Made by a program: the position numbers and the translations under genes. The notes below the pieces were generated by a model. It was not told where the DNA came from and made no database searches. It worked only from the letters and a program-made list of their open reading frames with translations. This document shows positions 3,803 to 28,437 of a DNA stretch of 64,000 nucleotides, piece after piece. Where the stretch lies: the IMG/VR virus record IMGVR_UViG_3300042350_003801; one strand, 5' to 3'. This DNA comes from a virus (Duplodnaviria; Caudoviricetes). Positions within the stretch are counted from its first letter, which is position 1. The number at the start of each line of letters is the position of its first letter.

Positions 3803-4056
3803 TTTTGGGTTTCAATATCGGAGATTCTTTTTCTTAGGGTGTCTATTTGTCTCTGCTTGCTTTCATCTTCAGCAGCTTTTCTCTGTGCATCTGCGCTCTG
3901 CTGAAGTTTCTCTTGGTTACTTTGTCGCTGCTGTTCTTGTTCTGCGGCGATTTGTTCTCTTTTTTCTACAGAGTTTTGAGCAGAGGTTGAACGAATAACC
4001 CGTCTGCGTGTTTCTATGTTTGAATTATCTTCGCAAAATTGTTGAAAGGTTTTCAT
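3799..4056 (-). CDS. Gln/Glu-rich coiled-coil protein with a capsid-targeting-like N-terminus
   Basis: starts MKTFQQFCED. Confidence 0.55.
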   Translation of the reverse strand: MKTFQQFCEDNSNIETRRRVIRSTSAQNSVEKREQIAAEQEQQRQSNQEKLQQSADAQRKAAEDESKQRQIDTLRKRISDIETQK

Positions 4057-4079
4057 CCTACTTTTTAAATTAGAACTAT

Positions 4080-4286
4080 TTAGAGGTCAAAAATCTTTCC
4101 AGCCGCAGATTGCTTATAGAACTCCAATTCTTGTCTCAGTTTTTCGTTCTCGGAAAGCAAAGAAGTAACATTTGCATTTACTCGTTCTGATTCAGTGAGA
4201 TTGTTGCGAAAAACATCAAGAGCAGTTTTAAATTTGGTAACAAACATTTCAATTGCGGGTGAGAGGGTGTGAATCGTCTGCACCAT
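4080..4286 (-). CDS. hypothetical coiled-coil protein
   Basis: ORF track. Confidence 0.5.
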   Translation of the reverse strand: MVQTIHTLSPAIEMFVTKFKTALDVFRNNLTESERVNANVTSLLSENEKLRQELEFYKQSAAGKIFDL

Positions 4287-4429
4287 CCAATGACTTGACG
4301 AATAGTTCGGCGAACTTTTGCATTCGTTCAGGAATGACGCTAGATGGTTGCTCGCTGATTGCCTTGCGAAGACTATCCATCTCTTTCCATTCTTCTATTG
4401 TCATTGGTTCGGTTGCATTCATTTTTTAT

Positions 4430-5574
4430 TTAGAGTTTAGTGAAGTTTACAGAGTAGTTTTCGTTTTCTTTAGATTTAAAGAATAGTTGCTGGGTTACAT
4501 TATCCCAACCAAAGGTATTCGGTTGTAGGTCATCAAGAAACTCATCGAGAGTTAACTTATCAGTTTCTCGTCTGTAGAACCAAATAGTGAAACTATCGGG
4601 CTCTTCTTCGGTTTCAATGAATTTCGTTGAAAGTTTTTTTGTAATTTCAAAGAAACCTTCAAAGGGTTGTTGAGTCTCCGCCATTGTCAATCTTTTTAAG
4701 AAGGGTTTCTTGAAGGGTTTTTAGGGCCTCGTATTGTTGGTCAACTACAGAGATATTCTCAATAGAAACAAGAATTTCACCTATTAGACGAATCACTACA
4801 GGCTTTTCAGTTCTAGATGCAAAACTTAGTGCATTGCGAATATGTGAGGCGGCTTCACTAAGTTCTTCTTGCACTCTTTCAGAAATTTGGTTCATTGTTG
4901 GTTTTGCAGGGTTTTGAGTTTAGGATAAATCGTTTCAGCTAGATGATACCGGCCACTATCAAAACTATCATACCAGCCAGCCTCTCTGTTGGAAAGAATT
5001 TCTTCTAGTTCTTTTAGAATAGAATCAAGCATTTCCGGCGGGTTGGGTAGAGATGGAGTTGGGCCGTAATCTGTGATAAGAGACGCTGTTCCAAAAGTCT
5101 CTTTCATATAAACTGGATCTCGGTCTGTTTTTGCCATTGTTTTAGTGAGTTGTGTCTCTGGTAATAGTTGGATAAATTGGTTCAATTTTACTTATGTTGC
5201 ACCAATCTGGTTTTTCCTTAAAGGTGCTACAAAGTTTTTGTTGCTCAGTTTGAGTTTTTGTGGTAAGTTGCCTATGAATGCAGGGAATGAAGACAACTCC
5301 ACAAACTATAGTTGCGGTGATTACATCAATCATCCGCCGAAACAAAACGTTGTGGATGTTGAGTAATTACAGAGTTCCAAACTTCTGGAAACTGCAAGTC
5401 AACTCGCTCAATAGAATATTCTAGAAAGGCAATTGCTGCATCTAATGCTACATCTGGATTTTCAGATTTTTCACGAGTATAATAGAGCATCTGTTTAACG
5501 TGTTCAAAGTTAAACAGAAGTTGTTCCATTTCACTTAATGAATCAAAAGAAGAAATGTAATGTGCGTCAAACAT
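4430..5574 (-). CDS. run of small hypothetical ORFs (4430-4690, 4659-4895, 4892-5185, 5142-5345, 5326-5574)
   Basis: contiguous overlapping minus-strand ORFs; no recognisable motifs. Confidence 0.5.
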
Positions 5575-26451: not shown

Positions 26452-26623
26452 AATGAATCCCCAACCGAAGTCGGGGATTCTAAATGGTAATTCTCTAAGT
26501 TTTTCTAGAATTCTTAGAGAACGATGAATCTGATACTCAAAAGAGTAGAGCAGCGACGGTATGAAAGGGTTATCTCGCAAGGTGGCGATTTTAAATCACC
26601 GGGCGGGATACACTTTCCAATTC
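26452..26623 (-). ncRNA. candidate structured ncRNA of unknown class
   Basis: TAAATA promoter at 26625-26630, several nested stems, terminator at 26455-26480. Confidence 0.45.
26455..26480 (-). terminator. rho-independent terminator
   Basis: GAATCCCCGAC-TTCG-GTTGGGGATTC followed by ATTTT. Confidence 0.8.
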
Positions 26624-26691
26624 CTATTTATTATTAAGACTTTCATCACAAAACAGGCAAAACTATGTGAAAGAATTTGGCTAAAAGCCAA

Positions 26692-26764
26692 CGACCAATA
26701 GGAGATTTGAACTCCTGTAACCTACTAGACAGGTAGGTGTCCTAGACCACTAGACGAATTGGCC
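26692..26764 (-). tRNA. tRNA-Asp (GUC)
   Basis: canonical cloverleaf; CCTAC-CT GTC TA-GTAGG; AGGAG-TTCAAAT-CTCCT. Confidence 0.95.
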
Positions 26765-26766
26765 AT

Positions 26767-26815
26767 ATCCAGACCGCCCCAAACGGTGCCGTCTACCGCT
26801 GACTTATTCCTGGAT
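26767..26815 (-). pseudogene. truncated tRNA-Pro(UGG)-like fragment
   Basis: D-arm GTC-AGCGGTA-GAC and anticodon arm ACCG-TT TGG GG-CGGT; no T-arm. Confidence 0.55.
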
Positions 26816-26835
26816 GTGTCAACTATTTAGGTTGG

Positions 26836-26990
26836 CAGCGATGTGCTATTACGCCAAAAGAAACTGCATTTTTCCTCGCCACATCACTTACATATGCCAC
26901 CTCTAAGGCCCGACATTACTAAGCATTTCGCAGTCTTGGTGCATTTTCTACTCTTTAAAGGATGGCTGCTTCTAAGCCTACCTTTCGCTG
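26836..26990 (-). ncRNA. 23S rRNA H43/H44 (L11-binding, GTPase-associated centre) mimic with a ~95-nt insert
   Basis: AGGTAGGCTTAGAAGCAGCCATCCTTTAAAGAGT ... GCGTAATAGC, closed by CAGCGA/TCGCTG; promoter at 27029-27034. Confidence 0.8.
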
Positions 26991-27214
26991 TTAATGAAAA
27001 GAAGTTTTGGGTATTTCCTTTCATTGCCTATTTATCATACACTAAAACTGGGGTTGCGGGAGAAGCGTGTGCCAGTTTGGGAGGTGTCTTAAATGTGGCT
27101 CCAATGTTTTTGAAACCTTGGTTACCTTAGGATATTTAAGCGATTTTGTCAAGGGGTAGTGGACGGTTGGGGGAGTGTCTACTTTTTATTTTGATATTTT
27201 TTGATGGGACGTAT

Positions 27215-27756: not shown

Positions 27757-28041
27757 CGAGAACGGCGTGACTCGAACACGCGACTTACTGCTTAGCTTAC
27801 CACTACGGATTTCCCCGCCATTTCTGTTTGTGGTCTGGACCATCTCTTCATCTTATCTTACGACTTAGATGCTTCCCGTATGGCCTCTACACGTTCAGGA
27901 TTTCTCCCGCTTCGCTCGGGATTGCCATAGTCTTACGACTTTAGGGTTCCCCGAATTTGAGAAGTTACATTTATGAAGTTTCCCTCGTAAAGCTCCTATT
28001 TTCGAAGGCAGTTGTTCTAAATCCAACTGAACTACGTTCCC
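27757..28041 (-). tRNA. tRNA-Arg (UCU), split by a group I intron (exons 28041-28005 and 27795-27757)
   Basis: acceptor GGGAACG/CGTTCTC; spliced loop CT-TCT-AA within stem ACTGC/GCAGT. Confidence 0.9.
27796..28004 (-). mobile_element. group I intron (209 nt, no ORF)
   Basis: core elements AAATTCGGGGAA (P), GGCAATCCCGAGC (Q), GTAGAGGCCATACG (R), AAGAGATGGTCCA (S); U-G at the 5' splice site; terminal G. Confidence 0.9.
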
Positions 28042-28173: not shown

Positions 28174-28437
28174 TTATTCATTCACTTCATCAGACAAATC
28201 AAAGGTTTTTCTAAACATATTGCGCCCATAAAAGAAAAGCTGTATCATTAAAACATCAAGAAGAACGGTAACAATGAATGCACCGGCAAGAGAGGATACA
28301 TTATTATCGTTTACATAAACACTAACCGAGGAACTAACTCCTTGGTCTAAAAAATAAAATAGTGGAATCCAAAGTAGAATAGCAAGAAATCGTTGTAGAA
28401 TAATCATCGTTAAAATGCATAGGACGTGAATTTCCAT
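28174..28437 (-). CDS. small membrane protein
   Basis: two hydrophobic segments; downstream of an early-type promoter. Confidence 0.5.
   Translation of the reverse strand: MEIHVLCILTMIILQRFLAILLWIPLFYFLDQGVSSSVSVYVNDNNVSSLAGAFIVTVLLDVLMIQLFFYGRNMFRKTFDLSDEVNE

Follow-up and report, generated by a model that had tools for sequence, protein, structure and literature searches.

A large lytic phage from lake water, whose replication module is T4-like (gp43-type DNA polymerase, gp46/SbcC-like nuclease, ribonucleotide reductase), carries among its tRNA genes a 155-nt RNA element resembling the GTPase-associated centre (GAC) of 23S rRNA. The element occupies positions 26990..26836 on the minus strand of the window, i.e. 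the whole stretch of 64,000 nucleotides analysed here (IMG/VR record IMGVR_UViG_3300042350_003801), and all genes around it lie on this strand. Hundreds of phage contigs share its two halves, each time enclosed by another, covarying outer helix, a recurrence far above what chance would give. As judged from the aligned sequences, the native three-dimensional GAC fold is under selection. We think it rather probable that tRNA-rich large phages of many bacterial phyla make an autonomous copy of the GAC, rarely accompanied by a copy of the sarcin-ricin loop (SRL), on a modular RNA that captures either a host factor that binds to ribosomes or an immune effector directed against the factor-binding site. 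These RNAs would thereby form an undescribed class of viral rRNA-domain mimics manipulating translation or the stringent response.

Layout of the element and its similarity to 23S rRNA

Read along the minus strand, the element is composed of CAGCGA, A-AGG-U-A, GGCUUAGAAGCAGCCAUC, C-UUUAAAGAGU, a 91-nt insert, UUUG, GCGUAAUAGC, ACA and UCGCUG. All parts described in the following are given in minus-strand orientation. The closing helix, which takes the place of H42, pairs CAGCGA (26985..26990, corresponding to nt 1050-1055 of 23S rRNA) with UCGCUG (26836..26841, nt 1104-1109); its 6 bp are of non-rRNA sequence. The first strand is followed by a copy of H43 (26959..26984, nt 1056-1081) including the A1067 loop, in which position 1061 is an A, and by the junction (26950..26958), which consists of UUAAA containing the lone pair 1082-1086 and of GAGU (nt 1087-1090). 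Between U1090 and G1091 the GAC copy is interrupted by the insert domain (26859..26949) and the linker UUUG (26855..26858; UUUR in the family consensus). The H44 hairpin GCGUAAUAGC (nt 1091-1100, with the A1095 loop) and A1101-C1102-A1103 complete the domain (26842..26854). According to the predicted folds and the basal pairs conserved in the family, the insert starts with a basal helix of ten positions, nine of them paired, and continues with a module termed class W, whose parts in the window are CUGC, GAAAUG, a 37-nt hairpin, UGAU, GUGG and an A-rich strand. A preliminary description of this DNA had given the insert a length of 95 nt; insert and basal helix are indeed present, but the value of 95 had counted the UUUG linker in.

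We compared the element with a real E. coli 23S rRNA gene. Over nt 1057-1103 the window is identical at 41 of 47 positions, and nt 1062-1079, 1081-1088 and 1091-1100 show no change at all, in agreement with the identity of 1062-1079 and 1091-1100 asserted earlier. Four of the six changes form two compensatory pairs, 1058/1080 (U-A to G-C) and 1090/1101 (A-U to U-A), the other two being U1061A and A1089G. An A at position 1061 is also present in 51 of 148 family cores. For the 58-nt domain of rRNA it has been reported that it folds independently and binds L11, and that U1061A stabilises its tertiary fold (PMC2719339). In contrast to a genuine 23S gene, the window copy is flanked by a phage intergenic leader and tRNAs instead of the H41/H42 kink-turn and H45, and its H44 is interrupted. 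The near-identity over nt 1057-1103 within a non-rRNA outer stem bears out the view that the window RNA is a self-contained copy of the uL11-binding GAC. The LSU rRNA model of Rfam, which the preliminary description had suggested for a search, gave local matches to the 5' half in relatives but none in the window.

Folding of the window element with ViennaRNA reproduced H43 and the H44 hairpin as well as the outer stem and the helix at the base of the insert. The z-scores of the folding energy, -0.43 for the window element and -1.0 in a second fold test, are not significant, so that the case for the structure has to be a comparative and not an energetic one.

For the surroundings of the element, a related contig of IMG/VR from another metagenome (L011) is informative. 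The only upstream block conserved between both is TTGACA-17 nt-TAAGGT (27124..27152, minus strand), which was recognised in the alignment with L011 and is weak, lying below the threshold of the sigma-70 scan. Because of its conservation we regard it as a candidate promoter of the ncRNA-tRNA unit. A leader of 102 nt (26994..27095, minus strand) is specific to the window and absent from L011. It holds the TGTATGAT and TAAATA motifs, previously interpreted as an early-type and a late promoter, as well as an 11-bp hairpin (27025..26993) with 10 Watson-Crick pairs and one G-U pair. The leader hairpin exists as described, but like the promoter motifs it is situated in an indel that L011 lacks. Furthermore, the sigma-70 scan found no promoter directly upstream of the element, and for the TAAATAG-type motif the window shows no enrichment, with 5 copies against 5.1 expected. 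We therefore do not count hairpin and motifs as parts of the conserved unit, and neither of the two promoters could be upheld.

Downstream of the element and on the same strand follow a remnant of tRNA-Pro(UGG) (26767..26817), which has lost its T arm by a 26-nt deletion and was not called by ARAGORN in the window, and tRNA-Asp(GUC) (26691..26765). The tRNA-Pro gene is intact in L011 (6105-6178). A weak terminator-like hairpin (26691..26677) follows tRNA-Asp(GUC), and then a strong one (26480..26455). The latter ends an ORF-poor stretch on the minus strand (26452-26630), where a weak match to the Rfam family BSnc120 turned out to be the terminator only. About 800 nt upstream of the element, a group I catalytic intron was detected on the minus strand (27814-28014, RF00028, 66 bits), which is flanked by small ORFs at 28174-28437 and 27895-28026.

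Occurrence and genomic setting of the family

An element so similar to rRNA might be an artefact of chimeric assembly with host rDNA, or else a relic, either a piece of rRNA acquired by transduction or exons left over from a decayed rRNA intron. Real 23S metagenome contigs do pile up on the 34-nt core, and some phage records among the blastn matches contain true 23S rRNA, e.g. that of Paenibacillus phage Pd_22F. The depth spike on the core, however, represents real 23S rRNA of other organisms and is thus irrelevant to the window locus. This locus is crossed by an 18.7-kb metagenome contig without any difference and is present in lake-water metagenomes from several studies; the same element is present on L011, where the change of the linker from UUUG to UUUA is the only difference within it. 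No other rRNA sequence adjoins the element, and the hundreds of covarying copies share derived features that are not those of rRNA, namely U1090-A1101, UUUR, the insert and the generic outer stem. In line with the preliminary description, which had dismissed contamination, an artefact or relic is refuted by these observations and retains next to no probability.

More than 240 IMG/VR contigs belong to the family, which is a lower bound. Scans of IMG/VR yielded 25 contigs with the 29-nt 5' half, at least 120 matches to the 3' half UUUR-GCGUARNAGCACAC and at least 118 to its U1092-A1099 variant. Among isolated phages, blastn found the 41-nt core in the Pseudomonas phages pf16 and UNO-G1W1. In both, the element fills an unannotated gap between tRNA genes and has the same architecture, with different complementary outer stems. 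At lower stringency Xanthomonas phage XacN1, Cronobacter phage GAP32, Pectobacterium phage CBB, Aeromonas phage 4_4572, Vibrio phage 2.275.O and the Pseudomonas phages Milchi and Astolliot were added. The full two-half element was confirmed by sequence in XacN1, GAP32 and 4_4572, while CBB, 2.275.O, Milchi and Astolliot are assigned by their core match only, the Pectobacterium and Vibrio phages being probable members. In XacN1 (L029, about 1150-1480) the element directly follows an annotated 2'-5' RNA ligase gene and has a promoter-like site (TTGACT-17-TAATAT) and an intrinsic terminator of its own.

In the genome contigs of GTDB (596 Gb), chance alone would produce the 18-mer searched for about 277 times, and credible elements, which possess the two halves as well as a closing stem, number only 38. 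Nearly all of these lie on tRNA-dense MAG contigs; one is present in the isolate Flintibacter muris. An 8.3-kb MAG contig (L186) contains two family members (3999-4345 and 5207-5387), both inside a tRNA array.

A tRNA gene lies within 300 nt of the element in about half of the cases and is missing at this distance in the other half. Where there is a neighbouring tRNA, it is always encoded on the strand of the element (64 of 64 cases in IMG/VR, 24 of 24 in genome contigs). Thereby, the spacing is often that of adjacent tRNAs: of 138 elements, 34 are followed by a tRNA beginning 1-21 nt past the outer stem, and 24 are preceded by one that ends 0-11 nt ahead of it. The element thus fills a tRNA-like slot of the array, from which RNase P and the 3'-end machinery would be expected to release the RNA at its outer stem.

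No protein is conserved in the neighbourhood, the largest ORF cluster being represented at 9 of 178 loci. Recurrent neighbours are genes of RNA repair and tRNA maintenance, namely those of Pnkp-Rnl1 fusions, CCA-adding enzyme, metallophosphatases or phosphoesterases and DUF2828/DUF7788 proteins (possibly Ro-like), as well as GIY-YIG endonucleases. Pnkp-Rnl1 repair fusions are encoded 1-4 kb downstream at seven loci and DUF2828/DUF7788 proteins occur at seven loci. In L050, L076, L100, L123, L131 and L226, which probably derive from related phages, the element is followed after about 105 nt by the gene of the CCA-adding enzyme. Neither in the window nor at the related loci did we find a ribosomal-protein gene adjoining the element, and the L11 gene is absent from five isolate phage genomes. 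On these grounds we rejected an autoregulatory leader of a ribosomal-protein operon. The missing conserved neighbour protein and the absence of L11 from the isolate genomes also suggest that the partner of the RNA is probably a host component.

No RNA sequencing runs holding the window element are listed. A homologue of 26842-26984 is present as a 182-nt contig in a freshwater-sediment metatranscriptome; its two halves are separated by about 82 nt, and it has an outer stem of its own, GAUUGG/CCAAUC. This contig, the sole trace of the family in an RNA library, comes from a run that otherwise contains rRNA contigs only. It is compatible with an unspliced RNA; since RNA libraries can contain DNA, it is weak evidence of expression.

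Conservation of the fold and structure of the inserts

Covariation was evaluated in 137 distinct cores and for some positions in up to 171. The set of 137 had been selected by the 3' half, so that the 5' half is unbiased. A1088 was set by the sequence filter and is therefore uninformative with regard to invariance. Every helix of the GAC covaries (137-171 distinct cores). The pair 1054-1105 is formed in 137 of 137 cores (G-C 101, A-U 31, U-A 5), 1058-1080 in 136 of 137 with four pair types, 1057-1081 in 136 and 1064-1074 in all 137. The lone pair 1082-1086 is formed in 131 of 137 (U-A 75, C-G 42, A-U 14), and covariation of the outer stem reaches to about 1047-1112. All these values are far above those of the shuffle controls.

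Conservation extends to the tertiary contacts. For 1072 and the pair 1092-1099, which form the established base triple of the GAC, 171 distinct cores with both variants of the 3' half pooled contain C/C-G in 116 and U/U-A in 53 cases and a mixed form in two. Position 1072 is U in 53 of the 55 cores with U-A at 1092-1099, and the combination U/C-G does not occur. U/U-A is the isosteric alternative of C/C-G. In a blind mutual-information scan over all column pairs, exactly the pairs of the GAC and the triple stood out, in addition to a weaker coupling of 1056 to 1082:1086. Furthermore, U1060, the pair G1059-C1079, G1071 and A1077 are essentially invariant. The covariation of helices and triple together with these invariant positions indicates that the native three-dimensional fold is kept and not the helices alone.

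The loops are conserved less strictly. The A1067 loop, earlier described as preserved, is present in the window copy, but among 148 family cores position 1067 is A in 111 (75%) and G in 33; G1068, A1070, 1096 and 1097 are variable as well. Contact with a translation factor or with thiostrepton is hence not what selection holds most strongly. The alignments show selection to be stronger on the three-dimensional fold than on those nucleotides of the loops that are in contact with EF-G, tRNA and thiostrepton. As the outer stem has no conserved H42 or kink-turn sequence, binding of L10 by the element appears doubtful.

Compared to the GAC of 23S rRNA (H42-H44, nt 1051-1108), the phage RNAs agree in the sequence of H43, the 1082-1086 junction and the H44 hairpin, in all helices, the lone pair and the triple with its C/C-G and U/U-A alternatives, and in the invariant U1060, G1071 and A1077. 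They differ in being free-standing, with H42 replaced by a generic stem of 6-12 bp lacking the kink-turn sequence, and in an H44 that is split at 1090/1091 by a domain of 23-365 nt and UUUR. They also have U1090-A1101, and A1067 and 1096/1097 are relaxed. U1090-A1101 is found in all members, rarely as U-G. An insert is likewise found in every member (median length about 130 nt), and among copies with the A1101 3' signature of the family none was truly insert-free (0 of 5 matches). Of the elements detected by their 5' half only, nearly all have UUUR or a one-base variant of it before G1091.

At the base of the insert, the first two pairs are Watson-Crick in 137 of 137 cores and the third in 129 of 137, and only 3-4 basal pairs are conserved. 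This short conserved base, the presence of conserved modules and the lack of insert-free members do not fit the resemblance to intervening sequences excised by RNase III that had been proposed for the insert. There is no module common to all inserts, and in some members the insert is only a hairpin of 23-41 nt. The common denominator of the family is thus the GAC core. Two modules recur and are sometimes combined in one insert. Class A (CACCCCG, a small GNRA-type hairpin and GGUAAGG, with covarying flanking pairs) was found in 31 of 121 dereplicated inserts. Class W (NUGC-GAAAUG-hairpin-UGAU-GUGN) is represented by 12 distinct sequences with covarying stems, including that of the window; a canonical kink-turn was rejected for its internal loop since the register does not fit. 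In several members (L041, L080, L106, L110, L134, L142, L144, L107, L067) a second hairpin is located in H43 beside A1077/U1078. It frequently carries a UUGAGCAA-like loop, which could be an internal docking loop or a protein-binding loop.

About two of 182 inserts (approximately 1%) contain a credible hairpin resembling the SRL, L371 with UAGUACGAGAGGA within a stem and L068 with a similar sequence. They thus imitate the GTPase-binding site in both of its rRNA elements. A blastn-short search of 182 inserts against the E. coli rrn operon gave five short matches, about nine being expected by chance; only the SRL match was credible, and no other rRNA pieces were detectable.

Related RNAs and possible function

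Extra-ribosomal RNAs that imitate the rRNA site of a protein and bind the free protein are known from the leaders of ribosomal-protein operons, e.g. the rplJ leader binding L10(L12)4 and the L1-binding leader. Such leaders are cellular, act in cis in the operon of the protein itself and are usually loose mimics. In contrast, the phage element is encoded in trans within tRNA arrays, reproduces a whole tertiary domain almost exactly and has no ribosomal-protein gene nearby. We know of no mimic of the uL11 site. EBER1 of EBV, an abundant viral small RNA, binds the ribosomal protein L22. It corresponds to the role proposed below in sequestering a ribosomal protein, but is unrelated in sequence and structure and copies no rRNA domain. 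GOLLD and ROOL as well as rnaC and rnaD of T4 are, like the present family, structured phage-associated RNAs beside tRNA genes and probably co-transcribed with them (PMC5737381; T4 annotation), yet have no known likeness to rRNA. The Rfam models of GOLLD and ROOL gave no match to the element, and GAC motifs are absent from rnaC and rnaD. The pseudo-ToxI of phage PhiTE is reported to be a virus-encoded RNA mimicking an antitoxin (PMC3475682); it has no relation in sequence or structure to the element and copies no rRNA domain.

The window and 10 related loci were compared with Rfam 15 at the gathering scores and at permissive E values up to 1-10. No family, including ribosomal-protein leaders, tmRNA and RNase P, matched the element; tRNAs, a group I intron and local LSU matches were the only hits. 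Our literature search of open-access and bioRxiv full text found no description of the family, and a paper on 224 motifs does not mention it. As far as Rfam 15 and these texts show, the family of several hundred phage RNAs appears to be new.

Regarding the function, we tentatively favour a model in which the free GAC domain binds and sequesters a host component recognising the GAC, uL11 being the most likely candidate. The element would be the gene of a stable small RNA, transcribed with the phage tRNAs and cut out like a tRNA. Its two ends would fold on their own into the native GAC domain (H43/H44 on a generic closing stem), from which the variable extra domain would project between U1090 and G1091 of H44. 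The free domain could then bind the component that recognises this fold on the ribosome, probably uL11, a protein that binds the 58-nt domain in isolation by virtue of the shape of the RNA. Present at tRNA-like levels, the RNA might draw uL11 off ribosomes or newly made ribosomes, and this loss may shift RelA activation, factor turnover and RF1-dependent termination in favour of the phage. We prefer uL11 because it reads the isolated fold, because the nucleotides of the fold are invariant while A1067 is not, and because no phage partner is evident. The variability of A1067 and 1096/1097 fits a partner reading the fold, as uL11 does, better than one reading the loops. Several points speak against uL11. 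A pure sponge would not need the insert and UUUR, although both are obligatory. The second hairpin beside A1077/U1078 of H43 in a subset of members might overlap the uL11 footprint, and the SRL copy of a few members points to GTPases or ribotoxins instead. Moreover, mature ribosomes already hold uL11, and infection cycles are short.

The SRL hairpins of L371 and L068 are understandable only with ligands that recognise the factor site as a whole. They would be explained if the RNA were a decoy for an agent that attacks or uses this site, i.e. a GAC- or SRL-directed effector, a translational GTPase or RelA, so that ribosomes are spared; candidate effectors are an ADP-ribosyltransferase, a nuclease or a thiopeptide-like compound of anti-phage or interbacterial origin. 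The neighbourhood of Pnkp-Rnl1, CCA-adding enzyme, phosphoesterases, the 2'-5' RNA ligase of XacN1 and Ro-like DUF2828 proteins suggests a setting of counter-measures against RNA-damaging defences. To our knowledge, no anti-phage system directed against the GAC has been described, and the variation of A1067 and 1096/1097 is odd for an RNA that should attract EF-G or an enzyme reading the loops. Only about 1% of the inserts carry SRL copies. The GAC itself is a proven target in bacterial conflicts: the T6SS toxin Tre23 is reported to ADP-ribosylate nt 1095-1098 of H44 and to block EF-G (PMC8661411), but it acts on translating ribosomes and not on naked rRNA. We hold a decoy of this kind, the main rival of the uL11 model, to be conceivable but on the unlikely side. 

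The obligatory insert, the recurrent covarying modules (class A in 31 of 121, class W in 12 sequences) and the relaxed functional loop nucleotides would be understandable if the GAC fold were a stable, nuclease-resistant clamp joining the RNA ends, the function residing in protein-binding or catalytic modules of the inserts and the likeness to rRNA reflecting ancestry. Against this stand the members whose insert is a mere 23-41-nt hairpin and the approximately 40 core positions still identical to rRNA across phages of distant hosts, which in a mere clamp could drift; simpler clamps exist, too. We judge it unlikely. A signal acting in cis on processing, stability or folding of tRNA operon transcripts, with no function of the free RNA, would agree with the constant strand, the tRNA-like spacers and the vicinity of tRNAs in about half of the elements. 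It is very improbable, since the other half has no tRNA within 300 nt, the XacN1 element possesses a stand-alone promoter-like site and terminator, and a role in processing needs no tertiary domain of rRNA. None of the functional readings, including the preferred sequestration of uL11, accounts for the obligatory insert together with UUUR.

The family comprises phages of many hosts, including the culturable pf16, UNO-G1W1, XacN1, GAP32 and Aeromonas phage 4_4572, and is easy to test; the XacN1 element with its own promoter-like site and terminator is a good experimental model. Independently of its function, the family provides a data set of natural variation for one of the best-studied RNA tertiary folds and natural scaffolds carrying foreign domains. 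If binding of uL11 or of another ligand of the factor site applies, the family would provide the first known case of viral RNAs that copy an rRNA tertiary domain in its entirety, and it would represent a new route by which phages act against translation, stringent signalling or ribosome-directed immunity.
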